Assembly: GCA_964598535.1 (NCBI GenBank)
Contig: CAZRCI010000003.1
Span: 155,741 to 219,740 of the forward strand
Origin: an uncultured Planctomycetaceae bacterium
GTDB lineage: Bacteria > Planctomycetota > Planctomycetia > Pirellulales > PALSA-1355
Length of the DNA stretch: 64,000 nucleotides
Direction of reading: 5' to 3'
This document shows positions 7,740 through 55,339 of this stretch, in pieces. Both the position numbers and the translations under genes were made by a program. Each line of letters opens with the position of its first letter. The first letter of the stretch is position 1. The notes beneath the pieces were generated by a model, which saw only the letters and a list, made by a program, of their open reading frames with translations, did no database searches and was not told the DNA's origin.

Positions 7740-8209
7740 ATGCCCACCATCCATCATCAAATCGCAATCGTTGGCGGCGGCACGGCCGGCATCACGGTTG
7801 CCGCGCGGCTGGCGAAAGGCCGGCGCAAACGGCTCGATATCGCCGTGCTCGAACCTTCCGACAAGCACTACTACCAACCTTTCTGGACCTTGGTCGGAGC
7901 GGGCATCGCTTCCAAAACCTGCCGACGCCGAAAACCGGAGCGGCAATTCGCAAGCAAGCGCCGGTGCTGGTACGTAACCTGCACGTCGCGCTCGACGGCA
8001 AGGTTCCGGACGCTTACTACGATGGATACACCTCGTGCCCGGTCGTCACCGGATACGGTAAACTGGTTCTGGCCGAATTCGACTACGAGAAGCAGCCCCG
8101 AGAGACGTTTCCGATCGATCAATCGCGCGAGCGCTGGAGCATGTGGCTGCTCAAGCGATACCTGCTGCCGCTTTTGTATTGGCACGGCATGCTCAAGGGC
8201 CGAGCCTGA
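7740..8209 (+). pseudogene. sqr: sulfide:quinone oxidoreductase (type II SQR) remnant with large internal deletion and frameshift
   Basis: N-terminal about 58 codons ([17 protein letters not shown]...[13 protein letters not shown]) in one frame. C-terminal about 100 codons ([14 protein letters not shown]...[61 protein letters not shown]) in another frame. Junction near 7908-7914. 470 bp total against roughly 1.2-1.3 kb expected. Confidence 0.75.
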
Positions 8210-48806: not shown

Positions 48807-49973
48807 ATGCAACTTTACGACGCAATCGTAGTCGGCGCCGGACTGGCCGGCCTCCAGTGCACGCGCCTGCTCGCCGGGCATGGTCTCGAGGTGGCCCTCG
48901 TCGATCGCAAGCACTCGCTGGCCGAGGGCGTGCACACAACGGGCATCTTCGTGCGCCGTTCGCTCGAAGACTTCGCCTTGCCGGCCGCACACCTAGGCCC
49001 TCCCATCCGAAATGTCACGATTTACGCTCCCAGCCGACGCTCGTTCGACTTCAGCAGCACGCGCGATGAGTTTCGCATCGGGCGCATGGGCCCACTCTAC
49101 GAGCGGTTGCTTAAAGACTGCCGCGCCGCGGGAGCCCAGTGGCTGCCGGCAACCAGTTTCATCGGCGCAACACCAACGCCCTTCGGATCGATCGTTCGGC
49201 TACGCGACTCCACGGGCGAACACGCGTTGCAAACGCGGATGCTCATCGGCGCCGACGGCACAAACTCGCGTGTCGCTCGCGAACTAAAACTCAGCGAAAA
49301 CCACCGCTGGATCGTCGGATACGAAGAAGTTTATCACCGCGACTCGCCAAGCGGCGAACCGCGCTTGCACTGCTTTTTCGATCGCCGCTATGCGCCTGGC
49401 TATATTGCCTGGGTGGCCGACGATGGCCAAGGCCTGCACATCGGCGTCGGCGGATACGGACATAAGTTCCAACCGCCCGCCGCGCTCGACCGATTCCGCG
49501 AGAGTCTTGCCGGCCTGATCTCGCTCGACGGAGCCCGCCTCATAGAGCGACGCGGCGGACGAATCCCGGTAGGCAGCGTGCTCCCCAAACTCGCCAGCTC
49601 TCGAGGATTGCTCCTGGGCGATGCGGCCGGAGCGGTGTCGCCGCTGACCGCCGGAGGATTGGACCCTTGCTTGCGCCTTTCCGAGTTGGCCGCCAAAACC
49701 GTGCATGCCTTTTTGCAGAACGGGAGCGACACCGCCCAACTTAACGCTTACGACGGTCGCCAGTTTCGGAGAAGGTATCGTGCCCGCCGGGCATTGCGAT
49801 GGATCTACGATCTGGCTGGCACGAATGCCGTACTAGAGCTCGGTATTCGGGCGCTACAGTCGAGGTTCGGCCGGTCAGTCGCTCGAAAAATCTTCTTCGG
49901 CAACGGTTCTTTTCCGACGCTACCGGCACAGGCCGACGCTCTGCGGACGCGAGCCACGCGCCCTTCCTCCTGA
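48807..49973 (+). CDS. FAD-dependent oxidoreductase (geranylgeranyl reductase-like)
   Basis: Dinucleotide fold YDAIVVGAGLAGLQCTRLLA. GADG and GDAAG motifs. Confidence 0.8.
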   Translation: MQLYDAIVVGAGLAGLQCTRLLAGHGLEVALVDRKHSLAEGVHTTGIFVRRSLEDFALPAAHLGPPIRNVTIYAPSRRSFDFSSTRDEFRIGRMGPLYERLLKDCRAAGAQWLPATSFIGATPTPFGSIVRLRDSTGEHALQTRMLIGADGTNSRVARELKLSENHRWIVGYEEVYHRDSPSGEPRLHCFFDRRYAPGYIAWVADDGQGLHIGVGGYGHKFQPPAALDRFRESLAGLISLDGARLIERRGGRIPVGSVLPKLASSRGLLLGDAAGAVSPLTAGGLDPCLRLSELAAKTVHAFLQNGSDTAQLNAYDGRQFRRRYRARRALRWIYDLAGTNAVLELGIRALQSRFGRSVARKIFFGNGSFPTLPAQADALRTRATRPSS

Positions 49974-50026
49974 ATCTTCGGTCGCCCCCGTCGAACGATA
50001 ACCACCAATCAACCCAAGGCTGGGCG

Positions 50027-50073
50027 CAAAAAATTACCCCGGCGCGGGGCGGTGTCAAACCCGCGCGCCGGGG
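50027..50073 (-). terminator. strong GC hairpin plus U-tract on the minus strand (orphan intrinsic terminator candidate)
   Basis: ccccggcgcgggg / cccgcgcgccgggg (10 bp, 1-nt bulge, 3 bp). On the minus strand it is followed by UAAUUUUUUG. No annotated minus-strand gene feeds into it. Confidence 0.45.
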
Positions 50074-50504
50074 CGTCCCTGGTAGTCGCCGTGTATTTTG
50101 CGAGCAGTGCGGAGTTCACCTCCGCACTTCGCGAGGCTGAAAAAGTTCACGACGGACTTTTTCAGCAGCCTGCCAGATATTCGCCACTCGACCAGCGAGC
50201 TTGGAATTCATTGCGATTGCTTGTGGAACGAAACCGTACAGAAAGGCCGCCAACGAATGGGTTACCCGCCCTTTGGCCCGAAAGATTCACGGTCGGCAAA
50301 AAAATTTTCTGTGAAAAACATCCCCGCTCGGCAGCGAAGCTCGCTCACAACCAGCGTCCGCTCCGGAACTACGGTCCTTCGGAAAGAATAGCGGCTGCAT
50401 AAACGAGTCAACCTACAAAAAATAACAAAAGCCGCTCATCAAAAGCGGTTCCTCCCCAGAAGCAATCGATTGCGCTTCGCTGCCGAGTGGCTATAATTGC
50501 CGCT

Positions 50505-51914
50505 ATGCACAAGCCCGCGATTCACTTACCGCATCGCCGCGATCTGCTTCGCGCGGGCGGTCTGGGGCTATTCGGCCTCGGCCTGCCAGACTTAATGCGC
50601 AGTCGTGCGCTGGCAGATAGCTCGGGCACCGCGTCCCCTGCGGGCGGCGCCTTTGGCCGCGCCAAGGCCTGCATCCTTCTCTTCATGTGGGGAGGTCCCG
50701 CCCAACACGATACCTGGGATCTCAAACCGCTTGCGCCGGCCGAGATCCGTGGCGAATTCAACCCAATAGCCACCCAGGTGCCGGGGATTCACATCTGTGA
50801 ACACTTTCCGCAACTCGCTCAGCGCACCGACAAATTATGCATCGTGCGTTCCGTAACCCACGGCGACGTGAACCACACGACCGCGACCAGCTACCTGCTT
50901 ACCGGGCAACCACCCGCGCCCACCGACCTGCGTAGTGACTGGCCGCACATCGGCGCGGTCCTGGCGCGGCTTGGCCGGGGGCGCAATCCACTACCGCCGT
51001 TTGTCTCGATGCGGCCCAAGCTGGAAAACGACGTCCCCCGCTTCGTCGAAGAGAGCCACGGCCAGTCCGCCGGTTGGTTAGGTCAAGCGCTGGATCCACT
51101 TTCGATCGATGCCAACCCCGCCGCCGCCGACTATCGCGTCGGCGATTTCCACCTTCCAGCCGAGATTTCCCTCGAACGGTTGGACGATCGCCGCAAGCTG
51201 CTGGCCGACGTCAACCGCCAACTCGAAACACAGATCCGATCGGCCGCCCTGGGTGCCATGGACCACCACGTCGAACGGGCTTTCGACATCCTCAACTCCG
51301 CGACCGCGGGCGGAGCTTTCGACCTCTCGCAAGAACCGACCCCGATCCGCGAGCGTTACGGACTGAACCCGCACGGTCAGTCCGTGCTGCAAGCTCGCCG
51401 GCTCGTCGAGCGCGGCGTACCGCTGGTGACGGTGTTCTGGCCCAGCGACGGAATCAAGAACGTCAGCGTCTATTGGGACACGCACAGCCGGAACTTCATC
51501 GACCTGAAAGAACGGTTGATGCCCCCGGCGGACCAGGCGTTCTCGGCACTGCTCGATGACCTTGCCGAGCGAGGCATGCTCGACGAGACGCTCATCGTTT
51601 GGACGGGCGAGTTTGGCCGCACGCCGCGCGTGGGGCAACGCAACAGCGACGCCGGCGCCGGCCGCGATGGCCGCGACCATTGGCCCGGCTGCTTCACCAG
51701 CGTGCTCGCCGGCGGAGGCGTGCGCGGCGGCCACGTCCATGGCGCGTCCGACCGCCATGCGGCCTACCCTGCGGCCAATCCCGTCGCGCCGGTCGACTTG
51801 GTGGCCACGGCCTACCACCTGCTCGGCGTCGACCAGCACCTGACGCTGCCCGATGCCCAGGGCCGTCCGCTCACGATCTGCCCCGGGGCGCCCATTCGCG
51901 ATCTGTTGGTGTGA
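50505..51914 (+). CDS. DUF1501 domain protein (TAT signal)
   Basis: HRRDLLRAGGLGLFGLG. LFMWGGPAQHDTWDLKP and GRDHWPGCFTSVLAGGGVRGG. TATAAT lies 7 nt upstream of ATG 50505. Confidence 0.9.
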   Translation: MHKPAIHLPHRRDLLRAGGLGLFGLGLPDLMRSRALADSSGTASPAGGAFGRAKACILLFMWGGPAQHDTWDLKPLAPAEIRGEFNPIATQVPGIHICEHFPQLAQRTDKLCIVRSVTHGDVNHTTATSYLLTGQPPAPTDLRSDWPHIGAVLARLGRGRNPLPPFVSMRPKLENDVPRFVEESHGQSAGWLGQALDPLSIDANPAAADYRVGDFHLPAEISLERLDDRRKLLADVNRQLETQIRSAALGAMDHHVERAFDILNSATAGGAFDLSQEPTPIRERYGLNPHGQSVLQARRLVERGVPLVTVFWPSDGIKNVSVYWDTHSRNFIDLKERLMPPADQAFSALLDDLAERGMLDETLIVWTGEFGRTPRVGQRNSDAGAGRDGRDHWPGCFTSVLAGGGVRGGHVHGASDRHAAYPAANPVAPVDLVATAYHLLGVDQHLTLPDAQGRPLTICPGAPIRDLLV

Positions 51915-51957
51915 TGGGCTTTCCATGGAAGCGAGTCGCGCTTTCCTGCCCGCAATC

Positions 51958-52019
51958 ACTCCCCACAGGGGGGTTCTGGGGTGGGAGAGCCAAAGAGGAA
52001 GAAATCGTCCTGTTCCGTC
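51958..52019 (+). repeat. hairpin-containing repeat, copy L1
   Basis: CTCCCC-ACA-GGGGGG hairpin, then gggagagcc...gaaatcgt...ttccgtc. By-eye alignment to 53832-53879. Confidence 0.45.
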
Positions 52020-52035
52020 ATTAAATTCTGGGGCC

Positions 52036-52153
52036 CCTTGCCGCGATCAATCACGACCTCTCCACGATCGAACAGAGCGTAATTCTCACTTGCCTTGCTG
52101 ACTCCCCCTTGTGGGGAGGTCCGGGGAGGAGGATGATAACCCTGCAAGGCAAG
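52036..52153 (-). repeat. hairpin-containing repeat, copy L2 (inverted relative to R), nested in a 10-bp outer stem
   Basis: CTCCCC-cttgt-GGGGAG (52102-52118). Outer stem cttgccttgc (52089-52098) / gcaaggcaag (52144-52153). The reverse complement aligns by eye to 53832-53952 in blocks cctccccRcaaggggg, agtgaga, atcgtggaRaggtcgYgat. Confidence 0.5.
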
Positions 52154-52180
52154 CGATCACAAACAAATACTCAGCTTCGT

Positions 52181-52351
52181 GGTCGCAGAGTACCCTAAGC
52201 CGGTTGAGATCGGACGCTGATGCGTTCGACTTTGCCTCTCTGGGGATACCCCGGGGGATCGTGAAAGGTTCGGATTTCGTCGCGTGAGCGCCGATGCGCT
52301 GCGTGCATAACTGCTCACGCCAGACCAGACTCGTTAGGGTACTCTGCGGCC
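52181..52351 (+). ncRNA. retron non-coding RNA (msr-msd) candidate
   Basis: a1 52181-52198 pairs with a2 52334-52351 (18 bp, one G-U). AGC follows a1 directly (candidate branching G at 52199). msr-side hairpins at 52200-52213, 52212-52227 and 52238-52256. msd-side 8-bp stem gcgtgagc/gctcacgc at 52282-52320. a2 ends 10 nt before the RT ATG. Confidence 0.7.
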
Positions 52352-52361
52352 CAACTTTTCC

Positions 52362-53684
52362 ATGCACTCGAATGCCGTCATCGCCCGGGCGCTCGCCGCG
52401 GTCTTTCTGGCCGACACGCTCGACGTGAACGGACTCGTCGAGCGAGGCGCCCACCTGCTGGGCAAGCGGTGGCGGTGGCTTCACCCGCTGGTCCGTCGCG
52501 TTTGTGAATCGTTCGGCAATCGGACACGTCCTCGACAACGTGAACTGGCCGGGTTCATCCTTGGCGACCACGGCTTCCGGGAAGCTGCGGGCAAGTACCG
52601 CCTCAGACTCGTCGATCGCTTGAGCGCGCCGCCCGCGATGACTCCGGTCGCGGCGGCTCGCGCGTGGGAAGTTCCGGCGATCCGCACGCCCGGTGAGCTC
52701 TGCGACTGGCTACAAATCAGCGCCGGCGAATTGGATTGGTTCGCCGACCTGAGAGCCTTCGAATACAAGCGAAATCAAGGCCGGCTCAGACATTACCATT
52801 ACCGCACGTTGGCAAAGCGATCCGGACAAGCGCGGCTGCTCGAAGCCCCCAAGCCGCGGCTCAAGGCGATCCAGCGCCGTATCTTGACAGGCATCATCGA
52901 CCACATTCCCGCGCATACCGCGGCGCATGGCTTTATGCGAGGTCGTTCGATCAAAACGTTCGCTGTGCCGCATATCGGCAAACAAGTCGTTCTGCGTCTC
53001 GACCTGCAAAACTTCTTCCCGTCGATTTCGGCGGCTCGAATCAGGGCCTTGTTTCGTACGGCCGGCTACCCCGAACGCGTCGCCGATCTGCTCGCCGGCC
53101 TGTGCACGAACGCGGCGCCCGAGGACGTCTGGAACGAGCTGACCGTGTCGATGCCAAGCTCGCAATTGCGCGGAGCGCGCGAGCTGCACGCCAGACCGCA
53201 TTTGCCGCAAGGAGCACCGACGTCGCCCGCGCTGGCGAACCTGTGCGCCTATCGCCTGGATTGCCGGCTGGCCGCAATGGCAACCTCGGCCGGCGCAGTC
53301 TATACGCGATACGCGGACGATCTGGCGTTCTCGGGCGACCAGCAGTTCGAGCGCATCGCCAAACGTTTTCAGCTCCACGTGTCTGCCGTTGCAATCAAGG
53401 AAGGATTTTCGGTGCATCACCGCAAGACGCGCGTCATGCGCCGTGGCGTTCGCCAGCATCTGGCAGGTGTCGTCGTGAACGATCACCCAAACGTGACTCG
53501 CGCGGACTTCGATCGCCTCAAGGCCACGCTGACGAACTGCATTCGCCACGGCGCAGCGAGTCAGAACCGAGCGGGCCACGACGACTTCCGCGCCCATCTT
53601 CTCGGGCGAGTTTCATTCGTCGCGATGATCAATCCTGCTCGCGGCCAGCGCTTGCAAGCACTGTTCGAGCGGATTGAGTGGTAG
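52362..53684 (+). CDS. retron-type reverse transcriptase with N-terminal extension of about 105 aa
   Basis: RT motifs LEAPKPRLKAIQRRIL, AAHGFMRGRSI, LRLDLQNFFPSI, LPQGAPTSPALANL, YTRYADDLAFS, RQHLAGVVVN (position of the retron VTG motif). GC3-rich throughout, including the N-terminal extension. Confidence 0.9.
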   Translation: MHSNAVIARALAAVFLADTLDVNGLVERGAHLLGKRWRWLHPLVRRVCESFGNRTRPRQRELAGFILGDHGFREAAGKYRLRLVDRLSAPPAMTPVAAARAWEVPAIRTPGELCDWLQISAGELDWFADLRAFEYKRNQGRLRHYHYRTLAKRSGQARLLEAPKPRLKAIQRRILTGIIDHIPAHTAAHGFMRGRSIKTFAVPHIGKQVVLRLDLQNFFPSISAARIRALFRTAGYPERVADLLAGLCTNAAPEDVWNELTVSMPSSQLRGARELHARPHLPQGAPTSPALANLCAYRLDCRLAAMATSAGAVYTRYADDLAFSGDQQFERIAKRFQLHVSAVAIKEGFSVHHRKTRVMRRGVRQHLAGVVVNDHPNVTRADFDRLKATLTNCIRHGAASQNRAGHDDFRAHLLGRVSFVAMINPARGQRLQALFERIEW

Positions 53685-53831
53685 CCAACTCGAGATAACT
53701 GAAAGGATTCGCTCAGCAGGCGAAATCCGAGATGTCCGATATCTCCGGATGCAATTCCGTGAGATCCTCACGCAGGTAGCTCGGCGGCACGATCGCCAGG
53801 ACGTGGTAAACGCGACGCTGCGGTCCTGCAT

Positions 53832-53952
53832 CCCCCTCCCCGCAAGGGGGCGGGAGCCGAGTGAGAGAATCGTTCCGCCAACCAGGGCTCAAGACGTATT
53901 GAGAATCGCAGTCCGTCCAATCGTGGAAAGGTCGCGATCGTCGCAGCAACGG
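53832..53952 (+). repeat. hairpin-containing repeat, copy R
   Basis: tCCCC-gcaa-GGGGg hairpin (53837-53850), then gggagccgagtgagagaatcgttccgcc and aatcgtggaaaggtcgcgatcgtcgcagcaacgg. Related by eye to L1 (direct) and L2 (inverted). Confidence 0.5.
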
Positions 53953-53974
53953 ACCTTCGCGCGCCGTTGCTGCT
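53944..53974. terminator. perfect 10-bp stem hairpin between the convergent RT and glgC genes
   Basis: gcagcaacgg-11 nt-ccgttgctgc. On the plus strand it is followed by a partly T-rich stretch (ttggcgactttgcgttttctct). Confidence 0.35.
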
Positions 53975-54040
53975 TGGCGACTTTGCGTTTTCTCTGCCCT
54001 GCTCAACAGATCCGCGTCTCCGCTCCTCTACGACGAACGC

Positions 54041-55339
54041 TCAAATCGCCCAGCCGTCGGGCACGATCGCGCCGCGCTGGACACAAACGATGCCATCGCG
54101 AATCACGGCCTGCTCGGTCTCGTCCTGCGTGTTCTCGGTCGAATCCAGCTCGCGCTCGTTGACAATCCTAACGCCGCGGCCGATACGGCAATTCTTGTCG
54201 ATGATTGCTCGGCGAATGGTCGTCCCCGCGCCGATGCCCTGGCGCGGCGTCCCCGCCGTTTCAGCCTGGTTCGCGTCGGCGGCGGTTTCATATTCATCGT
54301 TGCCCATCAACACCGAATCGCGAATCGTGACGTTCTTTCCGATCCGGCAGCGCAAACCGATGACGCTATTCTCAATGATCGTGCCTTCTTCGATCTCGCA
54401 ACCGTCGGCGATCAAGCTGTTGCGAATCGTCACGCCGTCGAGCCGCGACGGCGCCAAGAACCGTGCGCGGGTATAAATCGGCGCCACGGCCGACGCCAGA
54501 TCGAATGGACGCTCGATCGTGGCGAGTTGCAGGTTCGCCTCGTAAAAGGAACGGATCGTGCCGATGTCTTCCCAGTAACCGTCGAACAGATCGACCTGCA
54601 CGCGATGCGAGCGCGTGGCCGCGGGAAAAATCTCTCGGCCAAAGTCGTGATAGTCCGTCATCGTGAGCAGCTTCACCAGCGTTTGCCGGTTGAAAAGATA
54701 AATGCCCATGCTCGCCAGGCAATCGCGCCCGCGACTGGCGATTCCCCGCGCGTCGATCCAGGCCGGCTCCATCCGCACCATATCGATCTCTTTGTCCGTT
54801 TGCGGCTTTTCGAGAAAGCCCGCCACGCGCCCGCTGTCGTCGACGCGCATGAGCCCCATCGACCGGGCCGTCTGCCTATCGACGGGAATCCCCGCGATAG
54901 TGACATCCGCGGCGCTCTCCTTGTGGGCCGCCAACATCCGCCGAAAATCCATCCGGTAAAGCTGATCGCCCGAGAGCACCAGCACATAGTCATACTCCGG
55001 CTGATCGATGTACCGCAGATTTTGCCGTACCGCGTCGGCGGTGCCTTGATACCAGCTTTCGGCGCCGAGCGTCTGCTGTGCGGCCAGGATCTCGACAAAT
55101 CCCGCGCTGAAGGCGTCGAACGCATAGGTGCGGCGAATGTGCCGGTGCAAGCTCACCGAATTGAACTGCGTCAGCACGTACATGCGGTTCAAACCGCTAT
55201 TGATGCAATTCGACAGGGGAATGTCGATCAGGCGATATTTGCCCGCAAGCGGCACGGCCGGCTTCGAGCGATAGTGCGTAAGCGGGTAAAGTCGTGTGCC
55301 CCGTCCGCCACCGAGAACCAACGTCAATACGTTCCGCAT
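54041..55339 (-). CDS. glgC: glucose-1-phosphate adenylyltransferase
   Basis: LVLGGGRGTRLYPLTHYRSKPAVPLAGKYRLIDIPLSNCINSG and C-terminal left-handed beta-helix repeats. Confidence 0.95.
   Translation of the reverse strand: MRNVLTLVLGGGRGTRLYPLTHYRSKPAVPLAGKYRLIDIPLSNCINSGLNRMYVLTQFNSVSLHRHIRRTYAFDAFSAGFVEILAAQQTLGAESWYQGTADAVRQNLRYIDQPEYDYVLVLSGDQLYRMDFRRMLAAHKESAADVTIAGIPVDRQTARSMGLMRVDDSGRVAGFLEKPQTDKEIDMVRMEPAWIDARGIASRGRDCLASMGIYLFNRQTLVKLLTMTDYHDFGREIFPAATRSHRVQVDLFDGYWEDIGTIRSFYEANLQLATIERPFDLASAVAPIYTRARFLAPSRLDGVTIRNSLIADGCEIEEGTIIENSVIGLRCRIGKNVTIRDSVLMGNDEYETAADANQAETAGTPRQGIGAGTTIRRAIIDKNCRIGRGVRIVNERELDSTENTQDETEQAVIRDGIVCVQRGAIVPDGWAI

Follow-up and report, generated by a model that had tools for sequence, protein, structure and literature searches.

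The window analyzed here, a 64,000-nucleotide stretch of DNA, carries at 52362-53684 on the plus strand an open reading frame (ORF) that encodes a 440-residue retron reverse transcriptase (RT). As an earlier note on this DNA had reported, a DUF1501 gene (identified by Pfam) lies upstream, two convergent ORFs of 432 and 954 residues (called glgC and leuS in that note, names that we use as putative ones) lie downstream, and no defense-type gene is seen near the RT at the locus. The small flanking ORFs at 53674-54162 (plus strand), 53713-54006 (minus strand), and 51956-52147 (minus strand) have no Pfam match, and a promoter scan of the plus strand found no sigma-70-like site upstream of the noncoding RNA (ncRNA) described below. 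Inverted repeats of ∼100 nt surround the retron, and we considered whether they might be the ends of a mobile element. This was rejected as a general feature: the repeats have no further copies elsewhere in the genome and are missing from the retron flanks in three other genomes (G002, G022, and G004), and in the congener G002 homology extends over 52176-53820, ending just inside them.

The RT Core and Its ncRNA

Residues 110-440, together with the stop codon (52689-53684, plus strand), make up the retron RT core, as recognized by Pfam (RVT_1, residues 152-361), PADLOC, Foldseek, and a set of invariant motifs. The YADD motif (residues 317-320) is invariant in RT homologs, as is QGxxxSP (Q283, G284, S288, and P289). 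Region X reads FAVPH (residues 200-204), with H204 invariant and its Ala aligned with that of the Ec86 motif NATPH, and region Y reads LAG (residues 367-369), with G369 invariant; these His and Gly residues are the most conserved ones of the region X and region Y motifs (PMC7736814). The RT carries no C-terminal extension, and an insertion at residues 251-279 is spanned by the alignment to the Myxococcus type XIII RT.

Directly upstream lies an ncRNA of ∼170 nt (52181-52351) that comprises a closing stem formed by the a1 and a2 arms, two msr hairpins, and an msd stem-loop. The a1 arm (52181-52198, plus strand) is an 18-nt inverted repeat, 94% complementary to the a2 arm (52334-52351, plus strand), and in the minimum-free-energy (MFE) fold the two arms pair as the closing stem; a2 ends 10 nt before the ATG of the RT. 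A corresponding stem is found at about −175/−5 in most homologous loci, with compensatory changes, and in most homologs with an a1/a2 pair at this canonical position the distance from the end of a2 to the ATG is 4-35 nt. The putative branching G, G52199 (plus strand), sits directly 3′ of a1 in an AAG motif and is invariant in 20 aligned ncRNAs; it faces another invariant residue, G52333, just 5′ of a2, in the “two opposing G” layout that is typical of retron ncRNAs (PMC7736814, Figure 2 legend). From this layout, we infer that the 2′-OH of G52199 would be the primer for the multicopy single-stranded DNA (msDNA).

The first msr hairpin (52202-52236, plus strand) is present in the MFE fold, is variable in sequence, and is only partly retained in the consensus structure. 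The second one (52238-52256, plus strand), CUCUGGGG-AUA-CCCCGGGG, is almost invariant across the 20 ncRNAs. A relaxed version of its motif (at most two substitutions) is found in 57 of 61 loci, in all sampled phyla, 107-201 nt upstream of the RT start, and 80 of 106 loci have the exact core GGGGNTACCCC a single time each; the type XIII loci L100-L104 lack it. By these alignments and motif counts, the near-invariant hairpin is a hallmark of the RT lineage. The msd stem-loop (52271-52333, plus strand), the putative template of the msDNA, has in the MFE fold a core stem at 52282-52290/52312-52320 that is conserved with compensatory pairs. The fold of the whole ncRNA has a free energy of −95.6 kcal/mol (z = −6.8), compensatory changes are seen in 26 of the 42 consensus pairs of the 20 sequences, and our own alignment defines one conserved ncRNA family across loci, although a scan of 49900-54200 against Rfam gave no match at E values up to 1. 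Judged from its sequence, then, the locus is a retron in which the RT motifs and the adjacent structured ncRNA are both intact.

A Conserved, Coding N-Terminal Domain

The earlier note had drawn attention to an N-terminal extension of the RT that appeared to be truly coding and to be helical, and the analysis bears this out on all three counts. Some 100-105 N-terminal residues precede everything that the protein has in common with other retron RTs: similarity to Ec86 starts at residue 145 (aligned to Ec86 residue 46), similarity to the Myxococcus type XIII RT begins at residue 99, and Foldseek aligns ∼340 columns to solved retron RTs. The extension has a GC content of 0.75/0.52/0.75 at the three codon positions (i.e., the third position is GC-rich), aligns as protein in 20 close and 48 distant homologs, is conserved in homologs of at least six phyla, and has dN/dS values of 0.20-0.34 (versus 0.16-0.18 for the core); in addition, because the ncRNA ends 10 nt before ATG 52362, there is no room for another element in front of the gene. 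A start at an internal Met with non-coding sequence upstream, which the note had named as a possible objection, was looked for among the homologs and not found. Together, these data show that the extension is not a spurious upstream reading frame.

In AlphaFold2 models, residues 4-78 form a confidently predicted five-helix bundle (domain at residues 1-80; 52362-52601, plus strand), with helices at residues 4-15, 22-33, 40-51, 59-68, and 70-78; whether the full-length protein (pTM = 0.89) or the domain alone is modeled, pLDDT exceeds 90 over most of the bundle. An extended linker without regular secondary structure follows (from about residue 79/81 to residue 109; 52602-52688, plus strand), with conserved residues P90, M93, P95, W102, and P105. 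Because the pLDDT of the linker is higher in the full-length model (78-96) than in the domain-alone model (72-83), modeling suggests that it is ordered through packing on the RT core.

Foldseek searches with the model of the N-terminal domain gave best E values of 3.9 (PDB) and 2.2 (BFVD, viral structures), with no match below E = 2, and searches of residues 1-112 against Pfam and NCBIfam likewise gave no match. The domain is basic (median net charge +7, median pI 11.4); its conserved residues are hydrophobic ones plus R28, R46, R56, R58, and R60, with no conserved Asp, Glu, His, Cys, or Ser. A basic domain in which no acidic, His, Cys, or Ser residue is conserved does not look like an enzyme, and this one is not recognizable as a toxin. 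The earlier suggestion of a novel fused accessory or effector module is thus upheld in its first half, the domain being a conserved accessory module; the effector half finds no backing in a domain with no catalytic-type residue and no fold or family match.

Searching with a profile built on residues 1-112 yielded 1,054 representative clusters. RVT_1 was matched by seven of those examined, among them the three longest (565-627 aa); Pfam gave nothing for three others of 242-381 aa, and the four shortest look like N-terminal fragments broken off from RTs of this kind. One lineage member, P0250, has two tandem copies of the domain. As far as profile matches tell, the domain is, among the clusters examined, seen only fused to RTs of this lineage.

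Lineage Assignment and Search for a Partner Gene

The two best PADLOC models for the RT, RT_other (PDLC02949; E = 3.3e-158) and RT_outgroup (PDLC03740; E = 2.3e-151; profile positions 4-407 of 407), match it over its full length, N terminus included, whereas the next-best model, RT_XIII (4e-104), matches from residue 99 only and is ∼50 orders of magnitude behind. We take RT_outgroup and RT_other to represent clade 11 in Mestre et al. 2020 (PMC7736814), a link that is made through the model names and the “Outgroup” labels of ncRNAs in the SPIRE survey (PMC13712802), not through placement in the published tree. That survey, from 2026, describes clade11-A, clade11-B, and “OutgroupA/B” ncRNA models with no accessory module, and reports many low-confidence clade11-B members in Planctomycetota (PMC13712802); the effector-less state of the lineage had already been noted in print (PMC7736814). 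The locus is probably an intact two-part retron of this already known stand-alone lineage. PMC7736814 does not use the term “N-terminal extension,” and “N-terminal” is absent from PMC13712802.

A partner gene was sought by all-against-all clustering of the ORFs within 5 kb of the RT. Among ORFs of at least 70 aa in 81 loci, only the RT itself and ORFs overlapping it recur, and for 30-200-aa ORFs located within 900-1100 bp, the largest cluster spans three loci. A DUF188/YaiI-like gene was tried as a partner and rejected; it adjoins the RT in 3 of the 81 loci, two of which are close relatives. The scenario, also raised in the earlier note, of a conserved effector that accompanies the homologs and has simply been deleted here was thereby put to the test in 81 loci, and no such effector came to light. 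Neither an effector gene next to the RT nor an effector domain fused to it, of the kind that marks the three-part defensive retrons (types I-XIII), was identified, which shows that the RT has no effector encoded alongside it, either at this locus or at any other sampled locus of the lineage. A genome search with a single sequence of the type XIII SWIM partner as query, a weak test, found no homolog.

Inheritance, Selection, and Loss

The congener G002 has the same gene order, DUF1501-retron-glgC, and synonymous divergence from it is similar for the RT (dS = 0.90), glgC (0.86), and the DUF1501 gene (1.02). The flanking genes have an omega of 0.06 and the RT one of 0.20, and between the two congeners the ncRNA retains 87% identity at a synonymous-site divergence of ∼50% (dS ∼0.9). 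This shows that the retron has stood between the DUF1501 gene and the putative glgC since before the species of the genus split. Other genomes have an empty site (G001, with a 279-bp intergenic region) or a 1.1-kb internal deletion that joins the ncRNA to the 3′ end of the RT gene (G003); of two further copies, one has no single reading frame (L033) and one has an in-frame stop (L059) over the range of the tblastn match. Within the genus, the retron is thus shown to be vertically inherited at this site under purifying selection and to have been lost in some relatives. When the earlier note proposed an effector-less or decayed retron, it was right about the first, which applies lineage-wide with no partner in 81 loci, and wrong about the second, the motifs and the ncRNA being intact in this copy.

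Discussion

By analogy with characterized retrons, the RT would bind the msr part of the ncRNA, prime from the 2′-OH of G52199, and copy the msd stem-loop into msDNA. Because there is no partner in cis, the resulting RT-ncRNA-msDNA particle would either be the whole functional unit or act with an unlinked partner. Our best guess, a tentative one, is that the N-terminal domain provides the RT with an additional surface for nucleic-acid binding or assembly; the nucleic-acid-binding part of this idea draws on three things, namely the charge of the domain, its conserved arginines, and its lack of catalytic residues. A possible target could be the lineage's own ncRNA or msDNA, for example the hairpin at 52238-52256.

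Two other readings place the function of an effector outside the locus or inside the RT itself. An effector or toxin encoded elsewhere and controlled in trans by the RT-msDNA particle, with the N-terminal domain perhaps serving as its docking site, would make this a three-part system, as most retrons are (PMC7736814), and Mestre et al. explicitly allow for unlinked partners of orphan retrons (PMC7736814). A conserved, surface-rich helical domain would fit a protein-protein interface, as would the faster evolution of the RT protein (omega 0.20 versus 0.06). Such an arrangement is nonetheless unlikely, given that most genomes that host orphan retrons have no homologs of known retron partners (Mestre et al., PMC7736814), that the weak single-sequence search found no type XIII SWIM homolog in this genome, and that defense toxin-antitoxin pairs are almost always linked, with no linkage seen in 81 loci. 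We likewise doubt, and somewhat more strongly, that the domain is what frees these retrons from the need for a separate effector, whether it acts as a built-in effector or sensor that is non-enzymatic and under msDNA control, or directs a domesticated, vertically inherited RT-ncRNA particle to a host nucleic acid or protein in a cellular, non-defense role. A specific proposal would be that the effector is the domain itself, acting as a toxin or sensor without enzymatic activity (e.g., nucleic-acid-binding or membrane-active) that is fused to the RT and restrained by the msDNA; its analogy lies in the RT-fused effectors of types I-C, VII, XI, and XII, here placed at the N terminus. This proposal could draw on the fact that the domain is present in every examined member of the lineage and was seen in no other kind of protein, on the lack of any other effector of the lineage in the sampled loci, and on the two tandem copies in P0250. 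We consider it very improbable: the domain has only ∼80 residues with no conserved Asp, Glu, His, Cys, or Ser, it has no fold or family match, the full-length pTM of 0.89 suggests that it is integral to the RT body, the known effectors fused to retron RTs are enzymatic and sit at the C terminus, and an abortive-infection toxin would not usually be inherited vertically at a housekeeping site.

Two further readings would make the retron, or its extension, something other than a functional whole. That this is a decaying or inert remnant of a three-part retron that lost its effector may be suggested by the decay of copies in relatives (the deletion in G003 and the frame defects in L033 and L059), but it deserves very little weight, since the present copy has all the catalytic motifs, its RT has an omega of 0.20, and its ncRNA is 87% identical to that of the congener at dS ∼0.9; moreover, because the effector-less layout is common to 81 loci in at least six phyla, it is ancestral and not the result of a local loss. 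Finally, the extension could be taken for an annotation artefact, with translation starting at the conserved Met93 and the preceding 92 codons being a non-coding leader: M93 is invariant among close homologs, and some database gene calls begin at Met81 or Met93 (P0068, 381 aa; P0055, 348 aa). We give this almost no credence, as residues 1-92 align as protein across phyla with dN/dS of 0.20-0.34, AlphaFold2 folds them at pLDDT above 90, and the ncRNA, ending 10 nt before ATG 52362, leaves no space for a further element.

Effector-less retrons are a recognized problem in the field, and the locus sharpens the question that they pose without answering it. The N-terminal domain is a structural mark of the stand-alone lineage, and the near-invariant hairpin at 52238-52256 is a candidate ligand for it. 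The genus offers a natural comparison, with intact, internally deleted, and empty alleles at one housekeeping site, and the synonymous divergence of the retron equals that of the flanking genes. Compact units of RT and ncRNA that carry no toxin also hold practical interest for DNA writing.

Comparison with Known Retrons

The solved retron RTs (Ec86/Eco1, Eco2, Eco7/Ec78, Ec83, and Eco8) have the same RT-core fold as the present one, with HMM E values that reach 6e-41, and share with it the catalytic YADD motif and counterparts of regions X and Y. Foldseek TM scores, normalized to the target, are 0.72-0.82 for Ec86, Eco7/Ec78, and Ec83, ∼0.6 for Eco8, and ∼0.43 for the longer Eco2 fusion protein; for matches to the RTs of Ec86, Eco7, and Eco2, TM is 0.78-0.82 when normalized to the single-domain targets. 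In contrast, the start of the solved RTs corresponds to about residue 100 of the present protein; they have no helical bundle, and each of them acts together with an effector that is linked or fused.

The type XIII retrons (RT clade 10: Mx162, Mx65, Sa163, and Ne144) are represented by the Myxococcus RT, with 36% identity over residues 99-439. Both groups have N-terminally extended RTs and a tendency to vertical inheritance, and the earlier note's remark that myxobacterial retron RTs are extended proved accurate (the ORFs of L101 and L102 have 514 and 468 residues). Homology between the two kinds of N terminus was considered and rejected (hhalign probability 0.15-0.2%; no detectable similarity). 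Type XIII has SWIM/winged-helix (cluster 114) and HEAT/ARM partners, whereas no such neighbors are present here, and the type XIII loci L100-L104 do not have the hallmark msr hairpin; the combination of these partners with a type XIII ncRNA that would define the type is not found at the locus.

The other effector-less group, the Retron-Eco5 (Ec107) branch of clade 2, has the same stand-alone ncRNA-RT layout but belongs to a different RT clade: the PADLOC model RT_Ec107-like matches the present RT at 5e-59 in two stretches, the best at residues 279-428, and with 307 positions the profile is too short for an equivalent N-terminal domain.

The closest likeness is to clade 11, and nothing sets this retron outside that group. 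The ncRNA lies directly upstream of the RT with no associated gene, the sampled phyla overlap the Actinomycetota, Acidobacteriota, Pseudomonadota, and Planctomycetota given for clade11-A/-B in the SPIRE survey (PMC13712802), and there are signs of vertical inheritance, as the authors who described clade 11 suggested for some retrons. The present sample also includes Verrucomicrobiota and myxobacteria. What is added to the knowledge of clade 11 is a folded basic N-terminal domain, a hallmark msr hairpin, and the presence of intact, deleted, and empty alleles in one genus.

The extension is coding and forms a helical domain

The 5' quarter (52362-52690) of the 440-codon open reading frame at 52362..53684 (+) encodes an N-terminal extension of the retron reverse transcriptase (RT), which an earlier note on this DNA had described as about 105 extra residues before a canonical core that starts around residue 110. 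This delineation is borne out by several alignments: the Pfam RVT_1 match covers RT residues 152-361, a profile of close homologues matches solved retron RTs with Ec86 residue 46 opposite RT residue 145, and the alignment with a Myxococcus type XIII RT begins at residue 99. Among PADLOC models, RT_other scores best (3.3e-158, residues 3-440), together with RT_outgroup (2.3e-151, residues 4-440 against positions 4-407 of 407); RT_XIII is next (4.1e-104) and matches only from residue 99. The RT motifs are kept (YADD at 317-320, QGxxxSP, H204 as the region X equivalent, and G369 as the region Y equivalent), and the RT model superposes on the Ec86, Eco7, and Eco2 RTs. Between the two segments that align with Ec86 lies an insertion of ∼29 residues (251-279; window 53112-53198) with modelled helices at 254-260 and 266-277, poorly conserved (mean column identity 0.36) and partly common to type XIII RTs. 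The source genome also holds a second reverse transcriptase (G000:C6:15640-16086 (-), a 661-aa open frame, RVT_1 1.9e-17).

That the extension is truly coding, as the same note had proposed, follows from four independent grounds, namely protein conservation, purifying selection, the proximity of the retron ncRNA (which leaves no room), and a confident fold. Residues 1-105 align without frame problems in 20 close homologues (59-75% identical), in which L11, R28, G34, W39, P42, R46, P57, R58, F65, D69, G71, F72, A75, M93, P95, V96, W102, and P105 are among the near-invariant positions, and the helical pattern is also kept in 47 more distant homologues from Acidobacteriota, Planctomycetota, Pseudomonadota, Myxococcota, Actinomycetota, and Verrucomicrobiota. 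In comparisons with three relatives, residues 1-80 have a dN/dS of 0.20-0.34, residues 81-109 one of 0.31-0.45, and the core one of 0.16-0.18; GC by codon position in the extension is 0.75/0.52/0.75. The ncRNA ends 10 nt before the ATG at 52362, and in most homologous loci with a canonically placed pair of closing-stem strands (a1/a2), 4-35 nt separate a2 from the predicted start. A mis-called start, with the upstream stretch a non-coding leader, is hence scarcely credible: some database gene calls do begin at Met81 or Met93 (homologues P0068 and P0055), but given the conservation, dN/dS, ncRNA position, and AlphaFold2 fold we judge these to be short calls.

Full-length AlphaFold2 modelling with a 48-sequence alignment (mean pLDDT 93.5, pTM 0.89) agrees with the helical look of the extension, placing helices at residues 4-15, 22-33, 40-51, 59-68, and 70-78 ahead of an extended linker at 79-109. 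When the domain is modelled alone, the pLDDT of the bundle stays >90 while that of the linker falls to 72-83, so the linker is probably ordered through contact with the RT body. The 48 sequences show a basic domain (median net charge +7, median pI 11.4) in which conservation falls on residues of the hydrophobic core and on R28, R46, R56, R58, and R60, but on no Asp, Glu, His, Cys, or Ser.

Residues 1-112 have no match in Pfam or NCBIfam, and the best Foldseek E values for the domain are 3.9 (PDB) and 2.2 (viral structure library). As a profile searched against 1.84 billion representative proteins (E ≤0.001), the same residues matched 1,054 clusters. RVT_1 is present in 7 of 10 clusters scanned with Pfam, including the three longest (565-627 aa, with the domain further inward); the other three (242-381 aa) have no Pfam match. 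The four shortest matches examined (106-127 aa) stop inside or just past the domain, so we take them as probable N-terminal fragments of RTs of this kind. Among the ten scanned clusters and the four shortest matches, the domain was not seen in any other kind of protein. One metagenomic RT (P0250, 565 aa) carries two tandem copies.

A conserved ncRNA precedes the RT gene

Upstream of the RT, an 18-nt inverted repeat (52181-52198 with 52334-52351) forms the closing stem a1/a2 of the ncRNA fold (-95.6 kcal/mol, z = -6.8), which encloses a variable hairpin (52202-52236), a short GC hairpin, CUCUGGGG-AUA-CCCCGGGG (52238-52256), and a long stem-loop (52271-52333). Compensatory changes occur at 26 of the 42 pairs in the consensus structure of 20 aligned ncRNA regions; G52199, just after a1, and G52333, just before a2, are invariant in these regions and match the "two opposing G" layout described for retron ncRNAs (PMC7736814). 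In 57 of 61 loci, drawn from all phyla sampled, the short-hairpin motif (up to two substitutions allowed) lies 107-201 nt ahead of the RT start; 80 of 106 loci contain a single copy of its exact core, which is absent from all five type XIII loci. Judged by sequence, the retron element looks functional. Acidobacterial loci have a conserved, -10-like CTGnTAYnATG box ∼10 nt upstream of a1 (alignment A6 columns 30-40; 7800-7812 in locus L003), a possible promoter of the retron; on the plus strand of the window, no sigma-70-like match corresponds to it.

Intact, deleted, and empty alleles in one genus

Matches are patchy, occurring in 10 of 40 relatives. In the congener G002, the order DUF1501-retron-glgC is that of the window (glgC being the earlier note's name). 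In the congener G001 (L094, G001:C5 ∼1480-1760), the flanking DUF1501 and glgC genes are 279 bp apart, with no retron similarity between them. In a third, G003 (L096, G003:C18 1791-2274), the ncRNA without a2 (52176-52340) is joined to the RT 3' end (53484-53820), so that a2 and codons 1-374 (∼1.14 kb) are deleted and the last ∼67 RT codons are left. This contig ends 160 nt past the remnant; because GTCTGTTCGGCACGC lies near the ends of both it and the contig starting beside the DUF1501 gene, the assembly may have broken at a repeat or insertion.

Relative to G002, the window RT has a synonymous divergence of 0.90 and the flanking genes have values of 0.86 and 1.02; the likeness of these values indicates that the cassette has been at this site since the two genomes split. 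Omega is 0.20 for the RT and 0.06 for the flanks, and the ncRNA is 87% identical while about half of the synonymous sites have changed. With the states of G001 and G003, these values argue that the window copy is selectively maintained and faster-evolving than housekeeping genes, yet dispensable in some relatives.

An imperfect inverted repeat of ∼100 nt brackets the retron (52034-52135 versus 53829-53950, ∼78% identical, one 34-nt indel) just outside the segment conserved in G002 (52176-53820). The 5.4-Mb genome contains only three copies of the hairpin motif CTCCCCRCARGGGGG, at 51959, 52104 (-), and 53836. The bracketing repeat, which the retron flanks of G002, G022, and G004 lack, has the appearance of a local duplication or inversion specific to this lineage. 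In G022, of a related genus (L099, 47-8824), the retron lies between alcohol-dehydrogenase-like and P-II-like genes, with DUF1553/DUF1501 genes upstream and an isoamylase-like gene downstream; a neighbourhood of DUF1501 ... retron ... glycogen genes may thus be partly conserved. Over their tblastn match ranges, three RT genes are interrupted: L033, read in one frame, contains ten stops, suggestive of a frameshift, and L059 and L074 have one each, and all three are possibly pseudogenes or assembly errors.

No recurrent partner gene

The window neighbours are a DUF1501 gene and convergent ORFs that the earlier note named glgC and leuS. The idea that a conserved effector sits beside homologues found no backing: when ORFs of at least 70 aa lying no more than 5 kb from the RT were gathered from 81 loci and clustered all against all, clusters present in more than nine loci contained only the RT and other-frame ORFs overlapping it. 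Among ORFs of 30-200 aa within 900-1100 bp, the largest cluster spans three loci. Its member, a DUF188/YaiI-like protein of ∼150 aa (MHIWVDADACP...VTADIPLAA), directly adjoins the RT 41-50 nt downstream in L058 and L069 (Duganella-group) and 229 nt upstream in L033 (planctomycete); at 3 of 81 loci, two of them closely related, it is too rare to count as a partner.

The locus has an intact ncRNA and RT and a lineage-specific, folded, basic N-terminal domain, with no partner in cis. By analogy with characterised retrons, the RT would bind the msr part, prime from G52199, and copy the msd stem-loop into msDNA. Our tentative reading is that the N-terminal domain gives the RT a further surface for nucleic-acid binding or assembly, perhaps to engage the near-invariant short hairpin at 52238-52256. 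Of the "fused accessory or effector module" proposed earlier, the accessory half stands; a built-in effector is improbable for a basic helical domain that conserves no catalytic-type residue (Asp, Glu, His, Cys, Ser). Likewise, "effector-less" fits the 81 loci, whereas a decayed retron is highly improbable with motifs and ncRNA kept and an omega of 0.20. An unlinked effector is rather unlikely. For orphan retrons, Mestre et al. allow both for an effector acting in trans and for "a different mechanistic function", and they report that "orphan retron" hosts are mostly without homologues of known partners (PMC7736814); the type XIII SWIM partner as query, a weak test, had no match in the source genome.

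Relation to known retrons

The partnerless state of this lineage is already in the literature (PMC7736814, PMC13712802): the 2026 SPIRE survey gives clade11-A and clade11-B "OutgroupA/B" ncRNA models, lists no accessory module for them, and assigns many low-confidence clade11-B members to Planctomycetota (PMC13712802). The earlier note's statement that myxobacterial retron RTs are N-terminally extended is factually right for type XIII (ORFs of 514 aa in L101 and 468 aa in L102), yet it gives no sign of a common module: type XIII N-termini match the domain with a probability of 0.15-0.2% in profile-sequence comparison. The locus is a fresh member of a known, catalogued retron lineage, to which it adds three modest points: an N-terminal domain delineated as a hallmark without known relatives, an msr hairpin that is lineage-wide, and an intact, deleted, and empty allele series within one genus.
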